Origin: Ignavibacteriota bacterium
Lineage (GTDB): Bacteria; Bacteroidota; Ignavibacteria; UBA10030; UBA6906
DNA length: 64,000 nucleotides
Direction: 5' to 3'
NCBI GenBank assembly: GCA_963808715.1
Contig: CAWEHG010000015.1
Span: 8,732 to 72,731, forward strand
Shown here: piece by piece, positions 3,056 through 43,527 of the stretch
Layout: every line of letters begins with the position of its first letter
Numbering within the stretch: the stretch's first letter is position 1
Made by a program: the position numbers and the translations under genes
Notes under the pieces: model-generated
Database searches by the model: none
The model's input: only the letters and a program-made list of their open reading frames with translations
What the model was told of the DNA's origin: nothing

Positions 3056-4099
3056 ATGTCTCGGGCGAGACAGCACACGGGGATCCACGGGTCACGGTCC
3101 AGGGGCGAGCGGGTGGTCGCCGCCATCGTCATCGCTCTGCTCTGGCCGGCGTCTGCGCTCGGGCAGGGCTACGACGATACGTTCGAGATGAGGAGCAAGC
3201 TGAAGCTCGAGCTGCAGTACGCGGACTACAGCCAGTACGAATACCCGGAGCCGATCCTCTTCGGTTATGGCGTCGGTCCCTATACCCAGAACGAACCCTA
3301 CATCGTCAACTTCCCCGAGTGGCGGGCGCTGGTCAAGTACACGCGCCTTTTCGGCCCGCGGACGGCGGTGAGCCTCAAATACCAGTTCTCGGATCTCAAG
3401 ACGGGCATCGCCGGTCATTACCTCGAAGGGAAGGTGACCCGCAACCTGAGCGATCCGGTGATCGGTCTCCTTTCGGGGGCGTACCTGTACGATTCCCGCG
3501 GCTTCGGTGCCTTCCAGGGGGGAGCGGGGCTCTCCTGGGAGATCAGCCCGATCACGCTGGTCCAGGTGGACGGGCAGTACTACCACCGCGGACCGGAGGC
3601 GGTTCCCCTCGGCGGAGAGATGGGTTCGCTGAACCTCCGGCTGAAATTCCGACAGGTCCTCACGCTCTCCACGGCGTTCTTCGCGGAATACAGCTACTAC
3701 AACGCGAACGGCGATGCGATCTCATTCCTCTCGCACAATCTGTCGCTCTGGCTCAGCCAGTACCTCCCCACAGAGACGGCCGTGCACTTCAACGTCCGAC
3801 TGTACACGAACACCGCCGGCATCAGGTCGATCTGCCCGTCGGTGGAGATCGGACAGTACCTGAACTGGGCGACCGTGCTTCTGCTCAAGTTCCGGTATTA
3901 CCAGAACGAGAGCGACAACGTCAGTCTCGGCGAGCAGGGAGTGATCATCCCCGACGGCCTGATCTCCAGGACGCTCAGCGCACAGGTGAACCGCGATATG
4001 TCGGCGACCCTTCTGATGTACCTCAAGTACCGGTACTACAAGAGCAACCTCGGCGTGGCGATGCATACGTACATGCTCGGCGGCGTATGGTCATTCTAG
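3056..4099 (+). CDS. putative outer-membrane beta-barrel protein, family not recognised
   Basis: ORF 3056..4099. Signal peptide ..VVAAIVIALLWPASALGQG; Tyr-rich alternating strand pattern; C-terminus ..HTYMLGGVWSF with terminal Phe, typical of OM barrels. Confidence 0.6.
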   Translation: MSRARQHTGIHGSRSRGERVVAAIVIALLWPASALGQGYDDTFEMRSKLKLELQYADYSQYEYPEPILFGYGVGPYTQNEPYIVNFPEWRALVKYTRLFGPRTAVSLKYQFSDLKTGIAGHYLEGKVTRNLSDPVIGLLSGAYLYDSRGFGAFQGGAGLSWEISPITLVQVDGQYYHRGPEAVPLGGEMGSLNLRLKFRQVLTLSTAFFAEYSYYNANGDAISFLSHNLSLWLSQYLPTETAVHFNVRLYTNTAGIRSICPSVEIGQYLNWATVLLLKFRYYQNESDNVSLGEQGVIIPDGLISRTLSAQVNRDMSATLLMYLKYRYYKSNLGVAMHTYMLGGVWSF

Positions 4100-4911
4100 T
4101 GAAGCAAAAACACCGGCGGCCCGATCGGCGACTCCGAGGCCTTCTCAACTCACCGGGGTTCCTGGCGGCCGTGGTCTTGACCCTCGCGGGATGCGGCAGC
4201 CCGCCGGAGCCGTTCCCGCCCCCGGATTCGGGTGCGATCCGGGTGAGCGCATTCTCCAGCGCCCCGATCGATTCGGTGTTGGTCCATCTGGACGACCTGG
4301 CCCAGGGTGTTTTTGCGAATCCGTGCACCCTCCGGTCGGTGGTAGCCGGGACCCACAAGCTTACGGTCGTCGACAGCACGGGCGCCCGGACGGATACGAT
4401 GGTCTCCGTTCGAAAGGACGAACTGACCTCGACCGCGGTCCGGCTCACCAGGATCGGTCCATACGTGGGGAACGAGGCGCCGGACTTCGCGGTGAAGGAT
4501 ATCGACGGTCGACAGTTCTCGCTCGGCGCCCAGAGGGGCCGGGTGGTTTTCGTCTCCTTCTTTGAATACACCTGAGCGACGTGCATCACGACGGAGTTTC
4601 CGTCGTTCCAGTACGGGATCTACATCCGGCAGGACACCGCGAAGTTCCGGATGATCGCGTTCGAGAACCTGTCGTCCACGGCATGGCTGAAGAGCTACCG
4701 CAGCTCCAAGGGGATCACCTATCCGATGGTGCTGGATTCCCTTGGCCAGGTGTTCTCCCCGTATCGTGTGGATCCGTGTACGGGAACGTCGTGCCGACAT
4801 GCATCCTTGTGGACAAGAAGGGGCATAGTGCGTTTTGGAGCGACAATCAGTTCGAATATGGTGCTCGTGCTGTCTGACAAGATCACCGAACTGCTGTCTG
4901 AACCACCATAG
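4087..4911 (+). CDS. TlpA/redoxin-like lipoprotein, candidate selenoprotein (T-U-A-T-C; Sec codon TGA 4573-4575), two frame breaks as sequenced
   Basis: ATG 4087 (frame of ORF 3319..4575): MVILVKQKHRRPDRR..VVLTLAGC lipobox. ..NEAPDFAVKDIDGRQFSLGAQRGRVVFVSFFEYT-TGA-ATC-ITTEFPSF..; the same frame resumes in ORF 4651..4911. The C-half ..GITYPMVLDSLGQVFSPYRV / VPTCILVDKKGHSAFW (ORF 4581..4877 frame) / VLVLSDKITELL needs frame changes near 4768 and 4855. Confidence 0.6.
4588..4606 (+). promoter_or_regulatory. candidate bacterial SECIS hairpin downstream of TGA 4573-4575
   Basis: ACGACGG-AGUUU-CCGUCGU: perfect 7-bp stem, 5-nt loop with G at loop position 2. Stem starts 12 nt after the TGA; loop starts 19 nt after it. 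Confidence 0.55.
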
Positions 4912-4950
4912 GCCGGATTGCGCTATTCCGGCAGAGATGGGAGGGCTGTC

Positions 4951-7251
4951 ATGAGCATTTGCGAAGCGTCTACTCGCCGAGGGTTTGTGTGGGTGGTATG
5001 GATTTGTTTGGCGGCGTCGACCGCAGTGGGTCAATGGAAATACATCGGTCCGGATGGAGGCGCTCTGGGGGCTATGGCGGGTCACCCCACTGATGCGAAT
5101 GTGGTGTATGTGGTATCCGCTGCCGACTACTCTACAAAACTCCTCAAGTCGGCAGACAAGGGATTGTCTTGGTATCAACTGGGAATTGTGGGTGCTCCAT
5201 AGGATGTCCTCCTCGTGGATTGGTCAAACCCCGCTCTCATGTACACTTGCGGCTATGCAGGACTTAGGAAGACGACCAACGAAGGGGTGACCTGGGCCAC
5301 CGTGAGTCTCCCCACGCGCAACTACCTGCAGACGATCACCCTTGACCCGCAGAGTGTCAGCACGATTCACGGTGCCGGGTACTATTACGATACGGCCGCG
5401 ATAGGGCTCTACGCGAGAAGTACGAATGGGGGAACGAGCTGGAGCACGAAGCTTCTGACCTCCCGCCGTTCGTACATGTATTGCGTGACGGTGGCACCCA
5501 CCAATACGCAGATGGTGTTCGTCGGGGGGTATGACGTGGATTCGCTCACGTTCGCTCATTGGCAAACTAATGCGAAGTACGAACGGTGGCTCAAGTTTTT
5601 CGGATTGCACGGGTCCAATGAGTGGGACGGTGAACCATGTTCTCTGCGATCCCCTAACGGCTGGCAAGGTCTACGCCGCCTGCAACGAGGGGGTATACCG
5701 GAGTACCGATTGGGGAACGACCTGGACCATGAACAGTGGGATCGTGCTCTATCCCCAACGATTATCCATATGCCCAGCGAACACGGCCGTCCTCCTGGCC
5801 GCTACGTGGACTACGGCATCTACCGAAGTACCAATGGAGGATCATCGTGGGAGGCTGTTACCTCCGGGATGCCCAGTGCTCATCCCAAAGCTGTCCTGAT
5901 CGAACCAGGGAACCCCTCGGTAATGTACGCGGCAACGACCGCTGGGTTCTGCCGGAGCACGAACGGTGGGGGACAGTGGGTGTGGTCCTCCCGGCGCATC
6001 CGGGCGGCGAGCGTAAGCACGCTGGCGTTTGCTCGTCGAACCGTTCGCGAGTCTATGCGGGAATCGAGCCTGATGGGGTATTCAAGACGTCCCGGTGCTC
6101 TCGGCATGGGAACGGTTGCGTGGCAGCCCACGGGATGATTCATCTCATGCAGGAATACCGTGCCTGGGGTGGTGGTGTCCATGTCCAATGCTGATTCGGT
6201 CTTCGTCCTTGAAGGGGGTGGCCTCTAAGCAACCCGGCGACGCTCCACGTGAGCGGAGGTGGCGGGGCCACCTGGACCGATGTTCCGGCAGTGTTGCAGG
6301 ATGGAGCAGCCCTGGTGTGGGGACAGGGTCTCTTTCAAGCAGGTTCGTACTACGATCCTGAAAAAGGAATCCGCCAAATCGCTGTGGCGCGGAGCACAAA
6401 TCGAGGGCACAATTGGGTCACGACTGTTCTCGCTCAGAACTCTTCTGGATACGCAACGTGTCTCAACTTCAGGGCGGACAATCCGTCTGTCGGGTATCTT
6501 TCCGGCTACTACTATGACAGCGCATGGTATTCGCACGGCAAGATCTTCAGGACAACCAATGGCGGTCTGTCTTGGGGAGAGATCGGGAATTCAGTCTTTG
6601 ATACGGGAAAACGCCCCGTGCTGGCGATTGTGCCTGATCCTGCCAACCCAAACCGCCTCCTATCAGGAACGTACAATGGGGTCTACTTCACTAGTACCGA
6701 TGCCGGGAGTACGTGGAATTCGCCGGTCCAGTCCTTCAGGGCCATGTGCATCACAGAGGACAAAACTGTGGCCGGGAGGTTCTGGGTTGGCACCGACAAC
6801 GCGGGCGTCTGGACTACAACGAACAGTGGGAGTAGTTGGCAACAACTGAACACCGGTCTGCCGACATCAAACATCCTTTCTATCGTTCACGATCCCGTAA
6901 GCCGCGTATTGTATGCGGGGACCAAAGGCGAAGGTGTCTTTCGCCTTGACCTTCCTACGGGGGTGGAACGAGAGCCGGGCGCTTCTTTACGAGTTCGCGT
7001 TGGATCAGAACTATCCAAATCCCTTCAACTCGACCTCCACAATAGGATTTCGAATCCCAGCAGATGATCACGTGAAGTTGACCGTGTTCGATCTTCTCGG
7101 GAGGGAGGTGACCGTGCTGGTAGACGAGCCGAAAAGTCCCGGTCAGTACCAGGTGCAGATGGACACAGGGAGGCTTGCCAGTGGAGTGTATGTTCTCCGA
7201 CTGACGTCCGGCACAAGGACTCAGACGCGGACGTTGATCTTGGTTCGCTGA
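4951..7251 (+). pseudogene. BNR/Ycf48-like beta-propeller repeat protein with T9SS C-terminal sorting domain (fragmented as sequenced)
   Basis: Stitched from ORFs 4918..5202, 5215..6138, 5531..5899, 5736..6194, 6095..6361, 6249..7067 and 6913..7251. Signal peptide MSICEASTRRGFVWVVWICLAASTAVGQ. Blades STNGGTSW, STNGGSSF, STDWGTTW, STNGGSSW, TTNGGLSW, STDAGSTW, TTNSGSSW. C-terminus ALDQNYPNPFNSTSTIGF..GVYVLRL..LILVR. In-frame TAG 5200-5202 plus at least six frame changes. Confidence 0.7.
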
Positions 7252-7293
7252 TTGTTGTTTGTAGCGAGAAGAACCCACACCATCGAAGGGCGC

Positions 7294-7829
7294 ATGCGTA
7301 AGAGAATGATCTTTACGTTTTGGTCATTGTGGTGCTACATGCTCACGCTGCCTTGGGGCAAGAGGGACTCAGGGCCGGGGTGAAAGCGCCGGACTTCTCG
7401 CTCGCGACGGTGCAGGAGCAGGTCGTTTCGCTGAAGGATGCGGTCGCCAAGGGGACGGTCATCCTTCACTTCTGGAAGTCGAAGTGAAGGGAGTGCCAGG
7501 CGGAGTTTCCGCCTCTCAAGAAGATCGCCGAGGAGTTCAGGGACGTCCGGGTCCTCTCCATCAACCCGATCGACATGGCCGGGCGGGTGCGGTCCGACGC
7601 AGAGAATTTCGAGCTTCCCTATGAGGTGCTGGTGGGGAGGGATTCCGATATCATCGAAACGTATCAGATCTTCAAGCTTCCACGCATCATCGTCATCGCG
7701 CGGGGCGGCACCATTTCCTACACGGAACGGTACGCGCCGTACGACAAACTCAAAGAAGAGGTGAACAAAGCGAGAGCCCAGAAAACCCCATCGATCGAAG
7801 TAGGGTCGCTGTTGAGATGTCATGGGTGA
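7294..7829 (+). CDS. TlpA/redoxin-like secreted protein, candidate selenoprotein (K-U-R-E-C; Sec codon TGA 7485-7487)
   Basis: Frame 0: ..LVIVVLHAHAALGQEGLRAGVKAPDFSLATVQEQVVSLKDAVAKGTVILHFWKSK-TGA-REC-QAEFPPLKKIAEEF.. runs into ORF 7575..7829 (..FELPYEVLVGRDSDIIETYQIFKLPRIIVIARGG..). N-terminus uncertain: ATG 7294 (MRKRMIFTFW, frame 1) needs a 1-nt shift in T-run 7318-7321, or TTG 7320 starts directly. Track ORF 7335..7823(-) is an antisense shadow. Confidence 0.65.
7498..7514 (+). promoter_or_regulatory. candidate bacterial SECIS hairpin downstream of TGA 7485-7487
   Basis: AGGCGG-AGUUU-CCGCCU: perfect 6-bp stem and the same AGUUU loop as the 4588..4606 hairpin. Stem starts 10 nt after the TGA; loop starts 16 nt after it. 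Confidence 0.55.
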
Positions 7830-7865
7830 CTTGGGTTGCTCCGTGGACTACGTTTCCATCAACAG

Positions 7866-7892
7866 AAAAGGCCCCGGACTACGGGGCCTTTT
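7866..7892. terminator. bidirectional intrinsic terminator
   Basis: AAAAGGCCCCG-GACUA-CGGGGCCUUUU: perfect 11-bp stem with a 5' A-tract and 3' U-tract, between convergent stops at 7829(+) and 7918(-). Confidence 0.8.
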
Positions 7893-7917
7893 CTGTCAAC
7901 AGCATGAGTGCCGGATC

Positions 7918-10710
7918 TTACTGTACCGGCTTTCCGTCCGGATCCACCAGCTTCAGCTCACCGTAGTTCAGCTCCCGGATCCCCTTTTCGATCTTGTTCC
8001 GGTCGCCCACCACCACCCAGACGAGCGACGAGGGGGTGATCACCGACTTCGCTGCGGCGGCGATGTCGGCCTGCGACAACGCACCCAGGCGCGCGCCGTA
8101 GCCCTGATAGTAGTCCTCGGGCCATCCGTAGCGGATGACCTCGTTCATGGAACCGAGGATGGCCGAGTTCGTCTCCCAGCGCCCGGGCAGCTGCAGGGTC
8201 ATGTTTCCCTTCGCCTTCGTCACCTCGTCCGCGGTCGGCGGCCGGGTCGTCAGGATTCCGTGAACTCCTTCGTGATCTCGACCATGGACTCCTTGGTCTT
8301 GTCGGTCTGCACCGGCGCGCATAGCGATGAACGGCCGCTGGCCGCGCGCGTCGGGGAGGAACATCGCGCGCGCCGTAGGACCAGTGCTTGTCCTCGCGCA
8401 GGTTCATGTTGATGCGCGAGGTGAACGTGCCGCCGAGGATCGTGTTCATCGTCTCGATGGCGATCTCGTCGGGGTTCGTTGTCGGCGGGGCGAGGTGCGC
8501 CGCGAAGATGACCGACTGCTGCGCGCCCGGCTTGTCGATGATGTAGACGCCGGTGCTCGGCCGGCTTCACGGCACGTCGAGATGTTCTTCTTCGGGCACG
8601 TCGCCCGGCTTCCAGTCCTCGAAGAGCTTCTCGAGCTTCGGCTGGAGTCTCGGCGAGCGTCGTGTCGCCGACGACGATCAGCGTGGCGTTGTTGGGCTTG
8701 AACCAGGTCTCGTGGAACTCCACGAGATCGTCGCGCGTGAGCGTCGTGACCGACGGCCTCGTGCCCGAGCCGGTGAACGGGTTGCCGTAGGCGTGGTCCG
8801 GCGCCGTAGAGCAGGCCCGGCAGGACGCGCAGCGCCATCTGCGATGGGCTGCGCCTTCTCGCGCTGGATGCCGCCAGCGATCTGCTGCTTCTGCAGGCGC
8901 TCGAAATCGGCCTCGGGGAAGCGCGGGTTCAGGATCGACGTCGGCGATACAGCGTCGAGCGACGGCGTCGAGGTTGGCCTTCAGCGCGGACAGCGAGACG
9001 CGACGAGGTGTCCAGGCGGCTCCGGTGCCGAGCGTCGCGCCCAGCCGCTGCGAGCTCGTCGCTGATCTCAGCGCGGTCCGCGTCTTCGTGCCCTCGTCCA
9101 GCATGTCCATGGCCAGGCTGGCGGTGCCGGGCGACGCGACCTGGTCGGCGGCGTAGCCGGCGTCGAAGCAGCAGGTCGAAGTCGACGACCGGGATCGCCG
9201 TGCGCGCTCGGCGAGGACGATCTTCAGGCCGTTGGACAGCGTGGCCCGCTCGACTCGGGAACTTCGCGACCGGCGGCTGCGCCGGGCTCCGGCAGCTTCG
9301 AGCGGTCGACGCCGCTTGGCGGCGGCTGGCGTAGCTGCGGGAACGGATGGACCTCGAGGATGTAGACGCCGTCGGAGAGCCAGCTCCTTGGCGCGCCTCC
9401 TGCACGTCGTCGGCCGTCGCCGCCTGCTCGACGTGCGAGCGCGTGTCTTGTAGGCGTCGGGGTCGCCGCCGAAGACCTGGTTCGTGGCCAGGATGTCGGA
9501 CTTGCCGCCGAAGCCGCCGATGCGCTCGATGCCGCGGATGAAGCCGGCGACGTACTCGGTCTTCACGCGCTCGAGCTCGTCCTCGCGTCGGGCCCTTCGT
9601 CGAGGAACCTGCGCCAGCTCCTCGTCCATGGCCTTCTCGACCTTCGCGAGGTCGCCGCCGGGCTTGGCCGTGGCCTCGACGATGAACTGGCTGGCGATCT
9701 CGCGCGGGTCGACGTAGGCGGAGACGTCGGTGGCGATCTGGTCGTCGTAGACCAGCCGCTTGTAGAGGCGCGAGGTCTTCCCGGCCGAGAGGACGTCGCG
9801 CGGCGAGGTCGAGCAGGTACTCGTCCTCGGCGTCCCGACGCCGGGACGTTCCAGACCTTGTAGATCCGCGCCTGCGGCACGCGGTCCTGCAGCACTGCCG
9901 CGCTGCGTGCCGGTGCGCTTGGCGATCCACTGCGTCGTGCTGCGCGACCGGCGGGCCGGGCGGGATGTCGCCGAAGTACTTCTTCGACCTTCTCCAGCGC
10001 CGTCCTGCGGTTCGACGTCGCCGGCGATCGACGAGCACGGCGTTGGCGGGGCCGTAGTAGGTCTTGAACCACTCCTTCACGTCGTCGAGCGAGGCGGCGT
10101 TCAGGTCCTCCATCGAGCCGATCACCGTCCAGGAGTAGGGATGGCCGGCGGGAAGATGGCCTTGGCGATCAGTTCGTCGGCGATCGGCCGTAGGGCTGGT
10201 TCTCGCCCTGGCGCTTCTCGTTCTGCACGACGCCGCGCTGCTCGTCGAGCTTCGCCTGGTCGATCGCGCCCAGCAGGTGGCCCATGCGGTCGGATTCCAT
10301 CCAGAGGACCAGGTCGAGCGCCGAGGTCGGGACGTTCTCGAAGTAGTTCGTGCGGTCCTCGCTGGTCGTGCCGTTCAGGTCGGTGGCGCCGAGCCGCTCC
10401 ATGGCCTTGAAGTAGTCGTCGTTGAAGTTCTCGCTGCCGTTGAACATCAGGTGCTCGAACAGGTGGGCGAAACCGGTCTTGCCGGGCTTCTCGTTCTTGG
10501 AGCCGACGTGGTACCAGACGTTCACGGCCACGATCGGGGCCTTGTGGTCCTCGTGGACGATCACGGTCAGGCCGTTGTCGAGCACGAACTTCTTGTAGGG
10601 GATGTCGATCACATCGGCGGCCGCTGGTTCTGTGCCAGGGCGGTGACCGCGCCGGCCAGCAGGACCGGCAGGAAAAGCATGAAGAGCAACTGGGTGGGTC
10701 GCATGCGCAT
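7918..10710 (-). pseudogene. M16 (pitrilysin-family) zinc peptidase, about 930 aa with two halves, heavily fragmented as sequenced
   Basis: ATG at plus 10708-10710 with GGAG 5 nt upstream: MRMRPTQLLFMLFLPVLLAGAVTALAQ. Then VIDIPYKKFVLDNGLTVIVHEDHKAPIVAVNVWYHVGSKNEKPGKTGFAHLFEHLMFNGS (HxxEH). More M16 segments are scattered over ORFs 10122..10784, 8929..10125, 9563..10072, 8250..9629, 8446..8838, 7958..8449 and 7918..8364 (KKYFGDIPPGPPV, AVLQDRVPQARIYKVWNVP, LSNGLKIVLAER, MNTILGGTFTSRINMNLREDKHWSYGA, ..VVVGDRNKIEKGIRELNYGELKLVDPDGKPVQ). Well over ten frame switches. Confidence 0.75.
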
Positions 10711-10832
10711 CTCCAGGAGGTAAGTGAAAGGCAGGGAGCGGTGTGCTGTCGCTGAAATCTATTCAAAGCGGGGAGAAGATTCAACCCCCGCCACCTCCGG
10801 GCACTTCGTTTTCTTGAGAGAAATCCCTATGT

Positions 10833-13278
10833 TTGGCCATGCAACTCCCCCAACTCCCGGTCACAGACGCCCTTCCGCGGATACGGGAAGCGATACGGCG
10901 TTCGCCCTCGACCATTCTTTCCGCCCCTCCCGGCGCCGGTAAAACGACACTGGTACCTCTCGCCATTCTGGAAAGCGGGATACTCCGGGATTCGCGGATC
11001 ATCATGCTCGAACCGCGCCGATTGGCCGCCCGCCGGGCAGCGGAGTACATGGCGTCACTTATGGGTGAGAAAGTCGGCGGGAAGGTCGGCTACCGGATCC
11101 GCGGCGAGTCAGTGGTCGGCGACAATACCGCGATCGAAGTGGTGACCGAGGGGATCCTGACCCGTATGCTCCAGTCCTCGCCCGACCTTCCCGGTGTCGG
11201 GCTGCTCATCTTCGACGAGTTCCACGAGCGGAGCATTCATGCCGACCTTGGGCTTGCCCTCGCTCTGGACGTGCAGGAGCACCTGCGTCCGGATCTGCGC
11301 CTTCTGGTCATGTCCGCGACTCCGGATACCGACGCGCTCGTTCGCCTCCTCGGTGAACCGGCCATAGTGACCAGCGAAGGGAGGCAATATCCGGTCGAGA
11401 CCCGGTACCGCGCCTTCGCTGTGGAAGGGCCGATCGAGAAATGCGTCGCGGAGACGGTGCTTCGTGCGCTGGAAGAGGAGGAGGGAGACATTTTGGTGTT
11501 CCTGCCGGGGCAACGGGAGATCCGGCGGGTGGAACGGTTGCTGGAGCCGCGATCGCAGGGAGGGGAGGTGCAACTCCATCTATTGTACAGTGAAGCTCCT
11601 CCGGCGCAGCAGCGGTCCGCTCTTTCACCTGCCCCGCGCGGTGGACGAAAGGTCATCCTCGCCACCAACGTGGCGGAGACCAGCCTGACGATCGACGGGG
11701 TCCGCGTGGTGATAGATTCTGGAATCGATGAGAGTCTCCAGGTTCGACCCCAGGAGGGGAATGTCCGGACTGGAAACCGTCGTCGTCTCCAGGGCGTCGG
11801 CCGATCAGCGTCGCGGGAGAGCCGGCCGGCAGTCCCCCGGGATCTGCTACAGGCTCTGGACGGTGGACCAGGGATCCTCGCTCCCTCCCCATAACGTTCC
11901 GGAGATCCTTTCCACGGATCTCGCGCCCCTGGCCCTCGAACTTGCCGGGTGGGGGGGCGGGCTGCGTTTCATCGATCCGCCTCCTCCGGCACATCTTGCG
12001 CAGGCACGAACGGTCTTGACCGGGCTTGGAGCCCTTGACGCTTTGGGCCGGATCACGCTCCACGGAAAAGCGATCAGGGAACTCCCGGTCCATCCAAGGC
12101 TCGCGCACATGATCCTGGCCGCACGAGAGTTCGGGCGTGACGCGCTTGCCTGCGAGGTCGCTGCGCTTCTGGAGGAGCCGGGCCGGGGCGATCGGGAGGC
12201 CGACTTCCGCGCACACTGGCAGGCCGTGCGTGAAGGACGTGGGGATCGGGAGGGAAGGATCCGCCGGGAGGTCCGACGGTTGCGGGCGATCGTCGGTGCG
12301 CGAGAGGAAGAGGGGAGCGAGGATTCTCTCGGGATCCTCCTCGCGCTGGCCTACCCCGACAGGATCGGGAAACGCCGGCCGGACGGCAGGTATCTCCTCT
12401 CCGGCGGAACCGGCGCGGTCATTCCCGCCGGCAGCCTGCTTGCCCGTAGTGAGTTCCTCGCTGTCGCCCATCTCGATGCATCGGGAACCGAAGCGATGGT
12501 CCGGCTCGCCGCGCCGGTGACACGGGAAGAACTGTTGAAGGTCTTCGGCCCGGTCCTCAACGATCAGGAGGAGATCGGATGGGACGGTCAGGCCGTCACT
12601 GGGCGCCGCTCGCGCATGCTCGGCAAGGTCGCACTGGAAGAGCGACCTCTGGAGGTTGACACGGAAACCGCCCTGACAGCCATGCTGGAAGGGGTGAGGA
12701 CCATGGGACTTACCTGCCTGTCCTGGTCAGCGGAGTGCAGTTCGTTGCGGGCCCGGAGCGAGTGGCTCAGGCGCAGCGGCGTTGCCCCGGGAGAATGGCC
12801 GGACCTGAGCGACGACGGGCTGCTGGCTGACCTCGCAGGATGGCTCGGACCACATCTGCACGGCGTCACCAGGAAGAGCCAGCTGGAGAGGCTCGACACG
12901 AGCGGGATGCTCCGCGCCTACCTGGGCCACCGGCGGATGGCGGATCTGGAGCGGCTGGCTCCGGCGTTCCTTGCGGTCCCGACAGGTTCGAGGATCCGCC
13001 TCGACTACGAATCGGGACCGGTCCTCGCGGTCAAGCTGCAGGAGATGTTCGGACAGGTCAACACTCCCACTGTGGCCGGGGGAAAGGCCGCGGTGCTGAT
13101 CCACCTGCTCTCGCCAGCAGGGCGCCCTCTCGCCATCACGCAGGACCTTCCGAATTTCTGGCAGAAGGTCTATCCGGAGGTGAGAAAGGAGATGCGGGGC
13201 CGATACCCTAAGCATCCCTGGCCCGAGGATCCCCTCTCCGCCATCCCGACCCGGAGGACAAAGAAACGGGCGAGATGA
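10833..13278 (+). CDS. hrpB: ATP-dependent helicase HrpB (DEAH-box), one frame break
   Basis: ORFs 10833..11894 and 11728..13278. APPGAGKTT Walker A, LLIFDEFHERS, ..VVIDSGI / RVSRFDPRRGMSGLETVVVSRASADQRRGRAGR, C-terminal ..RGRYPKHPWPEDP. Frame change near 11724-11731. Confidence 0.85.
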
Positions 13279-21532: not shown

Positions 21533-21894
21533 GGAAGCAGATGTTGGTCAGGTCCGGGCGGTGCGAGATCAGGTCCAGGATCCAGTGGCTGAGGACGCAC
21601 AGAGCGACGCGCCAGCGCTCCGCGCATGGACCGCTTCACGGCAAGTAGACCCCGCCGGCGAAGGCGGCATACAGCAGGCAGGCGGCGAGACTGTGCGAAA
21701 GCGGGTAGTCGTAGAGGTCGAGCGGCACCATGGCTGTGATCCCTTCGACGATCCGCAAGTGTTCCAGTCCCGGCCATCACCAGCATGGGGAATAGCAGGT
21801 CCAGGAATGTCGCGCTGAGGACCAGCGTCCCCAGTGAGGTCTTCGGGGCGATCCGCTTTGCGGCAAAAGCAGCGGCATAGTGTCCGATGAACAT
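21533..21894 (-). pseudogene. YdjM/DUF457-like membrane-bound hydrolase-family fragment, frame-shifted and truncated
   Basis: ORF 21520..21894: MFIGHYAAAFAAKRIAPKTSLGTLVLSATFLDLLFPMLVMAG. Other frames then give LEHLRIVEGITAMVPLDLYDYPLSHSLAACLLYAAFAGGVYL and ..ALCVLSHWILDLISHRPDL, after which the sequence abuts the Kir fragment. Confidence 0.4.
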
Positions 21895-23736: not shown

Positions 23737-23941
23737 CGCGCACCTGAGGGTCTGGTGAGGGTTGAGGGACGGACCGGTCGTGAACGCAACATCCGGTCAA
23801 CGGACATCAACCTACAGAATGACGACGCAAGAGTCAACCGTGATGCCTCCGGATGAGCCCTGAATGGAATACGTCTTGCGAGCTCGATCTTCCTCCCGTA
23901 TATTCCCGCATACCCTGCAGTGCGCACCCGGAGCTCCTGAC

Positions 23942-25168
23942 ATGACCTCTCGTGAACGCGTTCTCTCTTCTCTGAACCACGTGGCGCCGGACATGGTCCC
24001 GATCGACTGCTCGGGGCACCGCTCCTCGGGGATCTCCGCGATCGCCTATGCAAAGCTCCGCCGCCACCTGGGCCTCCCGGACCGTCCTCTCCGCGTCTAC
24101 GACATCATCCAGCAGCTGGCGGTCCTGGACGACGACGTCCTGGACCGGTTCGGGATCGACACGATCGAACTGGGGAGAGCGTTCGCCCTCGATGACCGGT
24201 ACTGGGTCGATTGGACCCTTCCCGACGGTACGCCGTGTCAGGTGCCGGCATGGACGCCGCCCGAACGGGTGGAGAGCCACTGGGTGATCCGCTCGGCCAG
24301 CGGCAGGGTGCTGGCCAGGATGCCGGAGGGCGCGCTCTATTTCGAGCAGGCCTCCTGGCCGTTCGTCGACGGGCCTCCCGACCACAGCCGACTGCAGGAG
24401 GCTTTCGCAGAATCGATGTGGACCGGGATCGCATCGCCGCCCGGGCCGATCACCGGGGGAGCGGAGGGACAGGCGCTGCTGGGGCAGGAGGCCCGCCGGC
24501 TGCGCGAAAGCACGGACCGGGCGATCATCGGACTGTTCGGGGGGAACCTCCTCGAGTGCGGACAGTTCCTCTACCGCAACGACCACTTCCTTGAACTCAT
24601 GGCCGCCGACCCCGCGGCGACGCACGACTTCCTGGACAGACTCGTCGAGATGCACCTCGGGAACCTCGAACGCTTTCTTGCCGCGGTCGGGCCGTACATC
24701 GACGTGATCGTTTTCGGCGACGACCTGGGAATGCAGACCGGTCCGCAGATGTCCCCCGCGATGTACAGGAAGTATTTCAAGCCCCGGCATGCCTTGCTCT
24801 GGAAGCGTGCCAAGGAACTGGCGAACGTCAAGGTCATGCTTCACTGCTGCGGCGGCGTGCGTGAACTGCTTGCCGATCTGATCGATGCCGGCCTGGACGC
24901 GATCAACCCGGTGCAGATCTCTGCCGGGGAATGGACGCCGCGGGTCTCAAGGCGGACTTCGGGCAGAAACTGACCTTCTGGGGTGGGGGGTGCGACACGC
25001 AGTTCGAGCTGAGCAGGGGGACGCCGGAAACAGGTGCGGGATCATGTCCGCCGGCAGGTCCGGGTCCTGCAGCCGGGGGGAGGGTTCGTCTTCCAGCAGG
25101 TGCACAACATCATGGCGGACGTCCCGCCGGAGAACATCGTGGCGATGTTTGATGCCGTGAGGTCCTGA
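23942..25168 (+). CDS. uroporphyrinogen-decarboxylase-fold (URO-D / MtaA-CmuA-like) family protein, two compensating frame breaks
   Basis: ORF 23864..24973 (start moved to MTSRERVLSSLNHVAPDMVPID), ORF 24931..25152 (GMDAAGLKADFGQKLTFWGGGCDTQ), then back to the first frame (QVRDHVRRQVRVLQPGGGFVFQQVHNIMADVPPENIVAMFDAVRS, stop 25166-25168). Breaks lie in G-run 24926-24929 and A-run 25028-25030. Confidence 0.7.
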
Positions 25169-25705: not shown

Positions 25706-26165
25706 ATGAAGTATCTGTTTTCGATCGTTGCCCTGCTGATGATCGGTACGGCCGCCCACGGCGGCCCGAAGAACTACGGGAAATCGCTGACCCTCAAAGA
25801 GACCACCAGGATCTCGGACATCCTACGCCCAGCCACAGAAGTACGCCGGCAAGCGGGTGCTCGTCGAGGGTCCGGCCGTGAACGTCTGCAAGAAACGAGG
25901 CTGCTGGATCGAGATCGGGAGCGACAAAGAGTTCCAGAGCATCCGTTTCAAGGTGGAGGACGGGGTGATCGTCTTCCCGCTGGAAGCCAAGGGGAAGACG
26001 GTTCGCGCCGAGGGGATCGTCAGTGTGACGACCACCAGTGCAGAAGAGCAGATCGCCCAGGGGCAGAAGCATGCGAAGGAATCCGGCGAGGAGTTCGATC
26101 CGGCCTCCGTCAAGGGTCCGAAGACGACCGTGCTGCTCAAGGGCGAAGGCGCCGAAGTCCGCTGA
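25706..26165 (+). CDS. DUF4920-like secreted protein (one frame break)
   Basis: ATG 25706 MKYLFSIVALLMIGTAAHG..LTLKETTRISDIL (frame of ORF 25562..26329), then AQPQKYAGKRVLVEGPAVNVCKKRGCWIEIGSD.. (ORF 25857..26165 frame). Break near 25815-25822. Confidence 0.6.
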
Positions 26166-39736: not shown

Positions 39737-40469
39737 TCAGGACCCTCATCGTCGACGACGAGCCGCTGGCCCGGGAAGTTCTCCGGGAATACCTCCGCAC
39801 CCATCCCGACATCGAAGTGATCGGCGAGTGCTGCGAACGGGTTCGAAGCCGTACGGCAGACGGTCGAGGCGAAACCCGACCTGCTCCTGCTCGACATCCA
39901 GATGCCCCGCCTGAACGGCTTTGAGGTGCTGGAGCTGCTCGCGGAACACCCGGCCGTGATCTTCGTGACGGCGTACGACGAGTTCGCCCTGCGCGCGTTC
40001 GAGGTCCATGCAGTGGATTACCTGCTGAAGCCGTTCGACCGGCAACGCCTGGCTGCCGCGCTCGGCCGCGCTACGCGAACAGCTGCAACGCCGCAGGCTT
40101 CCCTCGCTGGCGCCGGTGATCGCCGGGGCCCGGCCCCCGGAAGTGCCGCTCCGGCGGCTGCTCATCCGCGACCGGGCGGAGGTACGGGTCGTTCCTGCGG
40201 AGGAGATCGACTACCTGGAAGCGCAGGACGACTACGTGGCGGTCAGGACCGCCGGCCGCACCTTCCTGAAACAGGCCCGCCTTTCGGACCTTGAGAAGCA
40301 GCTCGACCCGTCGAAGTTCGTCCGCGTCCACCGGTCGTTCATCGTGAACGTCGAGCGTTTGATGAGGATCGAGTTGTACGCGAAGGACAGCCGCGTGCTC
40401 TTCCTCAGGGACGGGACGAAGATCCCGGTCAGCAGATCTGGCTACGCGCGGTTGAAGGACCTGCTCTGA
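39733..40469 (+). CDS. LytTR-family response regulator (two frame breaks)
   Basis: ORFs 39733..39924 (VIRTLIVDDEPLAREVLREYL), 39902..40294 frame (NGFEAVRQTVEAKPDLLLLDIQMPRLNGFEVLE..IFVTAYDEFALRAFEVHAVDYLLKPF) and 40116..40469 (..EIDYLEAQDDYVAVRTAGRTFL..FVRVHRSFIVN). Confidence 0.8.
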
Positions 40470-42233: not shown

Positions 42234-43527
42234 AGCAGTCCGCAGAGGTCCGGTGGTCTTGCGTGTCGTGTGTGGCCGACGCTAAGAGTCGTATCTCCCG
42301 CGCGTTCCTGTGGATCGCCCTGCTCATCTCCGTGGCGGCGATCCCCGCGGTACGCCATGGTGGATACGGTGTATGTCCCCGGCCGGGCGTACTTCGGGCG
42401 GAACCAGTACATCGAGTATGACGCCGGTGAGCTTCCGATCGTCCTGACCTCTCCGCACGGCGGCCACGAGTTGCCGGAGGAGATACCGGACAGGACCTGG
42501 GGGACTACCTCCTACGACACCAACACGCAGGAGCTTCTCCGGGAGCTTGCCGCGGCCCTCTTCCGTCGGACAGGGAAATACCCGCATGTGATCTTCAACC
42601 GGCTTCACCGCGAAGAAGCTCGACGCGAACCGGGAGGTGGTGGAGGCCGCGCAGGGAAACCCCTATGCCATTCAGGCATGGGGCGAATACCATGCTTTTA
42701 TCGGAGCCGCCAGACAGGCGGTCCTCCGATCCGCCGGCAAGGGGTTGTACGTGGATATTCACGGCCACGGACACGCCGTCCAGAGGGCGGAGCTGGGATA
42801 CCTTCTGACCTCCGGTGAGCTCGCGCTTTCCGACGATTCGTTGGACCTTCCCCGGAATCGCAGCGAGTTCGAGCATCCGCACACTGGCCGGGTTGCGGCC
42901 TGGCGGGCTCGCCGGACTGTTGCACGGGCCCCATGCCCTCGGGACGTTCCTTGAGGACAGGGGGTACCCGGCGGTTCCCTCGGCCAGCAGCATTCACCGG
43001 GAAGCCGACCCGTACTTCACCGGGGGATACAACACGGAACGGTACGGGTCGCTCAACGGTGGGACCATCGATGGGGTCCAGATCGAGCTGAACTCCACGG
43101 GGGTCAGGGACACCGAGGTCAACTACAAACGCTTTGCGGAGGTTCTGTGCGGGCGTCCTCGACGATTACGTGCAGGTCCAGTACTTCGGCCGGCCGACCT
43201 CGGCACGGGAGGAGCCTCCGGTGGTCGACGGGCGCATGGACGCTGGAGCAGAACTATCCCAATCCCTTCAATCCCAGCACCAAGATCGGATTCTGTGTGC
43301 CCGCCGGGCAGGCGGGCGGATGGGTGGGGACCGCGGATGGCAGGTGGGTGCGGCTGCAGGTCTTCGACCTGCTGGGAAGGGAAGTGGCGACGCTGGTGAA
43401 CGAACGGAAGGATCCGGGCCCGTATGTGGTGACGTTCGACGCATCCGGCCTGCCGGGGGGCGTCTATCTGTACCGGTTCTCTGCCGGCGCGACAACGATC
43501 TCTCGAACGATGGTACTTCTCCGATGA
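42230..43527 (+). pseudogene. N-formylglutamate-amidohydrolase-like (FGase-fold) protein with T9SS C-terminal domain, five frame changes as sequenced
   Basis: Pieces: ORF 42230..42421 (signal-like ..RAFLWIALLISVAAIPA), 42270..42818 (YVPGRAYFG..ELPIVLTSPHGGHELPEEIPDR..VIFNRLHR), 42637..42954 (KKLDANREVVEAAQGNPYA..LYVDIHGHGH), 42815..43399 (..GTFLEDRGYPAVPS..YFTGGYNTERYGS..IQIELNS), 43134.. (GVLDDYVQVQYFGRP) and 43147..43527 (WTLEQNYPNPFNPSTKIGF..GVYLYRF..MVLLR). Confidence 0.6.

Follow-up and report, generated by a model that had tools for sequence, protein, structure and literature searches.

A redoxin frame crossed by an in-frame TGA codon

The stretch of DNA analysed here, 64 kb of contig CAWEHG010000015.1 from an Ignavibacteriota bacterium (hereafter the window), carries on its plus strand a small redoxin gene, candidate 2, whose frame is crossed by a TGA codon at 7485-7487, and 2.9 kb upstream of this codon a second redoxin gene, candidate 1, with a TGA of its own. 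An original prediction, made from the sequence alone, had proposed that both encode selenoproteins, in which UGA is read as selenocysteine (Sec, U). Direct reading of candidate 2 in frame 7251+3k gave ..GVKAPDFSLATVQEQVVSLKDAVAKGTVILHFWKSK (longer stretch EGLRAGVKAPDFSLATVQEQVVSLKDAVAKGTVILHFWKSK) up to the TGA and RECQAEFPPLKKIAEEFRDVRVLSINPIDMAGR after it; the frame then stays open through the open reading frame (ORF) 7575..7829 to a terminal TGA stop at 7827-7829, just as the prediction had described. The ORF list holds only 7320..7487 (55 aa), 7575..7829 (84 aa) and an antisense ORF at 7335..7823 (162 aa) at this place, and the prediction had named the C-terminal 84 aa and the antisense shadow correctly. 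The locus start that it had put at 7294 did not hold. The ATG at 7294 lies in frame 7252+3k, not in the redoxin frame, reads MRKRMIFTFWSLWCYMLTLPWGKRDSGPG and runs into a stop at 7381-7383, and the interval 7294-7829 has 536 nt, which is no multiple of three. In the redoxin frame itself, the only starts that follow the TAA at 7299-7301 are a TTG at 7320 and GTG codons at 7329 and 7332.

From 7320 to 7484 the frame encodes the end of a probable signal peptide and the N-terminal half of a thioredoxin-fold domain (..EGLRAGVKAPDFSL..VILHFWKSK), as indicated by a Pfam AhpC-TSA match and by the alignment of homologues. The TGA at 7485-7487, the proposed Sec codon, occupies the first, nucleophilic position of U-R-E-C, and the TGC at 7494-7496 supplies the resolving Cys of the UxxC motif, a residue that is invariant in all homologues (column +3). 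At 7488-7829 follow the C-terminal redoxin part with its cis-Pro loop (KLP), a tail and the genuine stop; fragments of this part are annotated as P0002 and P0004-P0006. Inside the codons for Q-A-E-F-P-P, at 7498-7514, lies a hairpin that resembles a selenocysteine insertion sequence (SECIS), with the apex CGGAGUUUCCG at 7501-7511.

When a Cys was placed at the TGA, the read-through product matched Pfam AhpC-TSA (PF00578) over positions 2-123 of 124 (E 1.7e-16, 60.7 bits, cut-off 26) and also Redoxin (PF08534) with 45.1 bits (cut-off 26.6). The N-terminal 55 residues alone (7320-7484) matched positions 2-35 of the 124 in AhpC-TSA, the N-terminal third of the profile, with E 2e-4; the homology to redoxin N-halves on which the original prediction had staked itself is present in this segment. 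The 27 relatives found in the PDB were led by ResA, the nearest being 4nmu (E 6.5e-11), and the alignment with 4nmu set FWKSK-[TGA]-RE-C over FWGTW-C-KP-C. The cis-Pro loop is kept, with the Pro of 'KLPR' opposite that of 'GPLPT', a match seen in the alignment from which the structural position is deduced. In a MAFFT alignment with canonical TlpA-like proteins, too, the first Cys of WCxxC fell in the TGA column, and the proposed mirroring of FWATW-C-xx-C by HFWKSK-U-REC was borne out by both the ResA and the TlpA alignments. NCBIfam models gave generic sub-threshold matches only (ResA subfamily NF002854, 65.8 bits against a cut-off of 170; DsbE TIGR00385, 29.6 bits against 123). ResA/CcmG equivalog status was not supported, with these scores below the cut-offs and no ccm or res genes nearby in the window, and selenoprotein-specific NCBIfam models (e.g. 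SaoT NF040730, HUIPC-motif NF047660, VPGUxxT NF041383) gave no match at E <= 0.01. These results show that the domain is an AhpC-TSA/TlpA-like thioredoxin-fold redoxin.

Conservation of the TGA codon and of the hairpin behind it

We read 13 distinct homologous loci, which came from look-ups of contigs and from one scan each of genomes and metagenomes and which belong to JGI, ENA and Logan metagenomes, an Ignavibacteria metagenome-assembled genome (MAG; L009) and an 'uncultured Bacteroidetes' MAG (L008). The locus scan worked by C-terminal alignment with a single peptide pattern and gave 2 genome loci and 7 metagenome loci. The DNA of P0003, P0004 and P0005 was left out of the TGA reading, and L018, which ends 14 nt past its TGA, was left out of the hairpin comparison. 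Results showed a TGA at the Sec column in all 13 loci and TGC or TGT in none, which answers the question raised by the prediction whether homologues have Cys or Sec at this position. Both flanks of the TGA are in frame and conserved across the 13 loci, and the coding sequences share a mean pairwise nucleotide identity of 68% (range 57-100%). The clade, recognizable by HFWKSK-U-[R/K]EC-[Q/R]AEFP, thus appears, from these DNA readings, to use TGA at the Sec position in every readable member.

Protein databases present the same genes in broken form. A word-indexed search gave seven relatives: P0001 and P0003, full-length JGI entries with W at the TGA column; P0007, an N-terminal piece that ends ...HFWKSK; and four C-terminal fragments. 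In a profile search of 1.84 billion representatives, the best single-domain matches, about 13 clusters, were either W-at-TGA proteins (P0008, P0010) or truncated fragments, and canonical WCxxC proteins appeared from about E 1e-20 onward. In agreement with the expectation that automatic annotation would mis-call such a locus, the entries fall into three sorts: N-terminal pieces that stop at ...HFWKSK, pieces from the C-terminal side, and code-4 translations that put W at the Sec position. Reading TGA as Trp is an artefact that systematically affects the annotation of selenoprotein genes on short contigs; JGI gene calls P0001, P0003, P0008 and P0010 all read TGA in this way and so carry W at the Sec position, and P0001 (L001 299-1006) has ~70 junk residues beyond the true stop. 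We also noted that the closest full-length single-domain relatives with Cys, P0044, P0048 and P0055, have a C-x-x-x-C motif (e.g. WKV-C-KGR-C) in which the Cys stands one residue before the Sec column and a Lys occupies the Sec column itself, an unusual spacing for a thioredoxin-fold active site.

Those W-containing translations are what would favour a standard amino acid at the UGA, be it Trp (code 4), Gly (code 25) or Cys by near-cognate decoding, together with the fact that the Sec machinery of the organism is presumed from its likely targets. We consider such a reading very improbable. In L001, where the W codon is TGA, the JGI code-4 translation does not end at the natural stop but reads on through four more TGAs into meaningless sequence. 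Within the window TGA is the prevailing stop, ending 26 of 35 well-supported genes and occurring inside none of those 35. Moreover, the enzyme would lose its activity with Trp or Gly in the nucleophilic position of CxxC, and the hairpin fits a SelB-dependent model. A genome at 64% GC is also, to our knowledge, unlike the known code-4 and code-25 lineages.

The same comparison bears on whether the TGA could be a sequencing or assembly substitution error for TGC or TGT. The window clearly holds indel errors or frameshifts, which would favour this, but the errors seen are indels and not substitutions, the same TGA recurs in independent assemblies from at least 8 samples, and the TGA of candidate 1 is also present in L019, a 99%-identical Illumina contig. 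The probability that we assign to such an error is negligible, in line with the view, already put forward in the prediction, that the TGAs of both paralogs are hard to explain as random error.

The hairpin behind the TGA was found on the sequence as it had been predicted: AGGCGG-AGUUU-CCGCCU at 7498-7514, starting 10 nt past the TGA, with its loop starting 16 nt past the TGA and a G as the second loop base. RNAfold gave a stem of 7 bp with a GUU loop (AGGCGGA-GUU-UCCGCCU, that is, a 6-bp core plus an A-U closing pair) at -11.1 kcal/mol for the hairpin by itself and at -12.8 kcal/mol when a weak lower helix is included. The SECIS of E. coli fdhF has a bulged U, which the candidate 2 hairpin lacks. 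According to Fig. 2 of PMC13188914, the bacterial SECIS (bSECIS) model comprises a loop of 3-5 nt (N1-G-U-N-N2), a stem of 4-16 bp, a UGA-loop distance of 16-37 nt and an MFE (minimum free energy) of -7.5 kcal/mol or below, and our hairpin falls within every one of these limits (loop AGUUU/GUU, 6-7 bp, 16 nt, -9.8 to -12.8 kcal/mol). Set against the bSECIS consensus as used by bSECISearch and drawn in that figure, it is very short, with a perfect stem of 6-7 bp and a spacing at the 16-nt lower limit. Rfam had no match to the hairpin, either at gathering thresholds over the whole window or at E-value thresholds over 7250-7900. A possible lower helix GAG/CUC (7491-7493 with 7515-7517) was rejected, as it is 87% paired and A-C mismatches are tolerated in it.

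To weigh selection on the RNA apart from selection on the protein, codons whose amino acid is invariant were compared across the 13 genes. Synonymous variation was present in 33 of 34 such codons outside the hairpin and in only 1 of 5 inside it (Fisher p = 3e-4). The Phe codon of the loop is TTT in 13/13 genes, while other Phe codons of these genes are mostly TTC; in this genome, only 7.7% of the Phe codons are TTT and 8% of the Pro codons are CCT, and both occur in the hairpin. Among 10 distinct sequences of the candidate 2 family, pairing of the 7-bp helix is complete (100%); G-C to G-U and A-U to G-U are the only stem changes, one of which comes with a Pro-to-Ser and another with a Gln-to-Arg replacement. 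These patterns, drawn from comparison of the genes, show a hairpin under selection at the RNA level.

The prediction had also pointed to a second UxxC-type TGA in another redoxin gene of the window, and this codon is found at 4573-4575 in candidate 1 (4087-4911, plus strand), a paralogous lipoprotein with a LAGC lipobox and the active site FFEYT-U-ATC, in which an extra N-terminal domain precedes the redoxin domain. Its database relatives are again N-terminal fragments, ending ..FFEYT, and C-terminal fragments. The candidate 1 hairpin, ACGACGG-AGUUU-CCGUCGU, lies at 4588-4606, at a distance from its TGA given as 19 nt. The 11-mer CGGAGTTTCCG has exactly two copies in the 64 kb (0.2 expected), each behind the in-frame TGA of one of the two redoxin genes; the second copy is at 4592-4602. 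The two redoxin domains share 19% protein identity, and the peptide contexts of their hairpins differ (TTEFPS vs QAEFPP). When 15 hairpins of the two families were aligned, the 6-bp core helix was paired in 15/15, both members of two core pairs had changed (G-C/A-U and A-U/C-G), G-U forms standing in between, and pairing fell from 97% to 39-59% when the 3′ arm was slid. The apex GGAGUU(U/G)CC appears to be a lineage-specific consensus common to two unrelated-looking genes. A third match to GGAGTTGCC, at position 6622 of L009, was dismissed as chance, having neither an upstream in-frame TGA nor a stem.

Probable selenocysteine decoding and its relation to known selenoproteins

All in all, a redoxin domain that continues across the TGA, a TGA in 13/13 loci, a conserved SECIS-like hairpin and a shared apex uphold the original prediction, and we consider it very probable from these sequence features that the gene is one for a small, exported thiol:disulfide oxidoreductase of TlpA/ResA type with selenocysteine as its attacking active-site residue. 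Several observations weigh against this reading. In this GC-rich window, 7.1% of all TGA triplets are followed by a hairpin of the generic bSECIS kind, and the folding energy of the candidate 2 hairpin is ordinary when compared with shuffles (z -0.9); the hairpin by itself is therefore weak evidence, and what goes beyond chance is its conservation and the shared apex motif. No double compensatory change occurs inside the candidate 2 family, and the two compensatory positions of the 15-hairpin alignment represent few evolutionary events, so that they are supportive but not decisive. Neither tRNA-Sec nor selA, selB or selD was found in the 64-kb window by ARAGORN, Rfam and Pfam scans of about 50 ORFs. 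Finally, no in-frame start with a usable signal peptide is present in candidate 2 as sequenced, as the TTG and GTG starts leave a leader of ~10 residues without a charged n-region, and the gene sits within a 9-kb stretch of broken genes, so this copy could be a pseudogene.

Two of these facts, the absence of Sec machinery from the window and the unremarkable hairpin energy, could be read in favour of a TGA that is a true stop, as could the way in which standard gene callers annotate the locus. The gene would then be a split or truncated redoxin, made as two small ORFs or as an N-terminal peptide of 55-64 aa only, and the hairpin would be a by-product of QAEFPP. Such an explanation is hard to reconcile with a stop at the catalytic Cys column in all 13 loci, at 57-100% nucleotide identity, behind which purifying selection continues in frame. 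Nor would it account for synonymous sites that are frozen specifically in the hairpin, the rare TTT and CCT codons included, or for an identical 11-nt apex behind the TGA of a paralogue that shares 19% identity and embeds the hairpin in another peptide. We regard a true stop as highly improbable.

With selenocysteine as the preferred reading, the established bacterial Sec pathway suggests how the locus would work. The UGA at 7485-7487 would be recoded as Sec, and the hairpin at 7498-7514 (apex GGAGUUUCC) would act as a bacterial SECIS that recruits SelB and Sec-tRNA(Sec) while the ribosome stands on the UGA. The U-R-E-C centre of the product would cycle between the selenol/thiol and the selenenylsulfide forms, and the signal peptide would direct its export; in the cell envelope, the protein would then probably serve as a reductant or an isomerase. 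We infer Sec insertion, export, the redox partners and the direction of electron flow. Likewise, we infer the Sec competence of the organism from its two conserved UGA/SECIS genes; ARAGORN detected no tRNA-Sec on the 16 loci that were scanned.

Bacterial selenoproteins of this kind have been known since 2004-2005, the UxxC thioredoxin fold is the commonest predicted type among them, and candidate 2 is a new member, possibly a new subfamily. Table 1 of PMC13188914 lists, citing Kryukov & Gladyshev 2004, a 'Prx-like thiol:disulfide oxidoreductase' or 'Prx-like protein' (PF00578, UxxC), and PMC1088965 describes 22 Sargasso Sea sequences of this Prx-like family as distant relatives of peroxiredoxins with a thioredoxin-like UXXC motif. 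As far as these descriptions go, the family fits: in both, Sec comes first and the UGA is closely followed, still within the coding region, by a bacterial SECIS. By the same descriptions, the candidate 2 clade stands apart through its own HFWKSK-U-(R/K)EC-(Q/R)AEFP signature, a signal peptide, the lack of close Cys orthologues and a cassette with type IX secretion system (T9SS) BNR proteins; targeted term searches of PMC13188914 and PMC1088965 returned neither this signature nor the signal peptide, the lack of Cys orthologues or the BNR cassette. The Sec-containing TlpA-like UGC family, as far as its description reaches, is also similar, being a TlpA-like thioredoxin-fold subfamily of extracytoplasmic type with Sec in the redox motif and widespread Cys homologues, but its motif is U-G-C and that of candidate 2 is U-x-x-C.

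Among Cys-type enzymes, ResA, CcmG and TlpA (PDB 4nmu, 1st9, 1kng) resemble candidate 2 in fold, size, active-site position, cis-Pro loop and, to judge by the leaders of its homologues, N-terminal export signal. The active sites read FW-x-x-W-C-x-x-C in those proteins and FWKSK-U-R-E-C in candidate 2, which differs in having Sec for the nucleophilic Cys, a Lys in place of the usual preceding Trp and a charged dipeptide (R/K-E) between the redox residues. Similarity to these enzymes is modest (E 1e-8 to 1e-11), and no linkage to cytochrome c maturation was found in the window.

The known principles of Sec decoding and of TlpA-like redox chemistry are left unchanged by these results. Their consequence would lie elsewhere: standard gene callers do not see the clade, every entry found in the databases being a fragment or a wrong-code translation, and pipelines would thus miss a selenoprotein clade in Ignavibacteria-like bacteria, by which the catalogue of thioredoxin-fold selenoproteins gains a member or a subfamily. 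In addition, an identical 11-nt apex in two very divergent genes of one genome offers a compact and testable definition of the SelB target in this lineage.

State of this copy and the surrounding cassette

In the homologues of candidate 2, the Sec codon is preceded at 64-68 codons by an ATG, and the leaders have the typical look of signal peptides. In the window, the matching elements are the ATG at 7294 and the sequence up to 7319, which would supply the start and the positively charged n-region of a signal peptide (MRKRMIFTF) and which stand, as sequenced, in frame +1 relative to the redoxin. Between the two frames lies a TTTT homopolymer at 7317-7320 (plus strand), the suspected site of a 1-nt deletion that would be either an assembly error or a real frameshift. 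Adding one T to this run joins the ATG at 7294 to the redoxin frame and gives MRKRMIFTFLVIVVLHAHAALGQEGLRAG.., a normal signal peptide that begins exactly 64 residues before U.

The out-of-frame ATG and the poor TTG and GTG leaders are also what a decaying pseudogene would show, that is, a genuine selenoprotein family of which this particular copy carries a real frameshift and yields no exported protein; the disruption of the neighbours (BNR/CTD, candidate 1, hrpB and M16 peptidase) points in the same direction. Yet, bar one base, the 178-codon frame is intact, is about 60-73% identical to its homologues and keeps all invariant residues. The suspected indel falls in a homopolymer, as does a second deletion (GGG to GG) that shows up against a 99%-identical Illumina contig, and housekeeping-type genes such as hrpB are affected as well; indels in homopolymers and damage to hrpB are therefore better explained by assembly errors than by selective decay. 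We conclude that an indel assembly error in the T-run is the most likely cause of the out-of-frame start, and that real decay, the alternative, is rather unlikely. The conclusion on the TGA is untouched by this question, because it rests on independent assemblies.

The second homopolymer deletion is in candidate 1, where comparison with L019 shows the 1-nt change GGG to GG near 4770, by which GSVYGNVVPTCILVDKKG loses its frame. After ~4823 the nucleotide similarity to L019 ends abruptly, and the C-terminus then resembles that of the homologue P0158; this break suggests indel errors and/or a chimeric or recombinant junction. Between the two redoxin genes, 4950-7251 (plus strand) encodes one or more BNR/sortilin-like repeat proteins with a type IX secretion C-terminal sorting domain (Por_Secre_tail). 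At least 4 frame changes are needed to read this region, an in-frame stop lies at 5200-5202, and the GC content at third codon positions is 0.55-0.7, against 0.8-0.9 elsewhere in the window. Beyond candidate 2, the M16 peptidase gene (7918-10784, minus strand) is split between frames, with the M16 N-domain in ORF 10169-10612 and an M16_C piece in ORF 8250-9629, and the helicase gene hrpB (10833-13278, plus strand) falls into two parts, 10833-11894 and 11728-13278, the frame shifting near 11722-11735. Outside this broken stretch the window has long intact ORFs.

The order of genes in the window is a DUF3570-like beta-barrel (3056-4099), candidate 1 (4087-4911), the BNR/CTD region (4950-7251) and candidate 2. 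The same arrangement was found on other contigs. In L008, L009, L010, L011, L012 and the P0004 contig, the Sec-redoxin gene is preceded by a BNR/sortilin-like gene of ~440 aa followed by one of ~330 aa with a T9SS tail. In L008, L009 and L011, which reach far enough upstream, a lipoprotein redoxin with its own TGA precedes the BNR pair; its active site reads FFEHT-U-LxC and its hairpin AGACGG-AGUUG-CCGUCU. The paired TGA positions are 2854 and 5998 in L008, 1532 and 4468 in L009, 44 and 2998 in L011, and 4573 and 7485 in the window. Judged from this gene order, there is a conserved cassette in Ignavibacteria-like MAGs and metagenome contigs that holds two predicted selenoprotein genes, candidate 1 being the first selenoprotein and candidate 2 the last member.

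A wider proposal is that the two Sec-redoxins, one a lipoprotein with its extra N-terminal domain and the other small, soluble and exported, the T9SS BNR/sortilin pair between them and the DUF3570-like beta-barrel form one envelope or cell-surface selenoprotein redox module in Ignavibacteria-like bacteria of the FCB group. We put this forward tentatively, as a possibility that we hold to be somewhat doubtful. In such a module, both selenoproteins appear to be obligately Sec-containing, without Cys orthologues, and to use a common minimal SECIS apex, GGAGUU[U/G]CC. If true, the module would be an extracytoplasmic selenium-dependent system and not two stray TlpA paralogues. The conserved pairing of Sec-redoxins with type-IX-secreted BNR proteins in itself points to a possible extracytoplasmic role for selenium.

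Some homologous loci have further redox genes next to the Sec-redoxin. P0011 (549 aa; L002 1220-2869 / L003 968-2302), directly downstream of it, combines a CcdA/DsbD-like membrane domain with two Cys-type redoxin domains, which hints at a possible reducing electron donor, in one lineage only. In L009, the Ignavibacteria MAG, a multihaem cytochrome gene of c7/c3 type (5126-5695) lies just downstream of the Sec-redoxin gene.

Downstream of candidate 2, direct reading revealed an A-tract, the hairpin GGCCCCG-GACUA-CGGGGCC and a T-tract at 7866-7894, probably a bidirectional intrinsic terminator, and this terminator-like element separates candidate 2 from the convergent minus-strand gene. A simple terminator scan did not list 7866-7894. 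Over the window, Rfam reported a tRNA-Gly and, in addition, weak matches resembling small RNAs, which overlie 7866-7894 and are attributed to the terminator hairpin.

Other pairs of same-frame ORFs split by a TGA occur in the window at 26163-26165 and 40467-40469 and, on the minus strand, at 42994-42996 and 21636-21638. They were rejected as further candidates, having neither a redox motif nor a hairpin motif, and look like ordinary adjacent genes; an aldo/keto reductase gene starts right after 40469. The window also encodes an MtaB-like methanol:corrinoid methyltransferase B subunit at 2-1300 on the minus strand (Pfam E 2e-147) and a URO-D/MtaA-like protein at 23864-24973 on the plus strand, and the host is apparently a T9SS-bearing bacterium.

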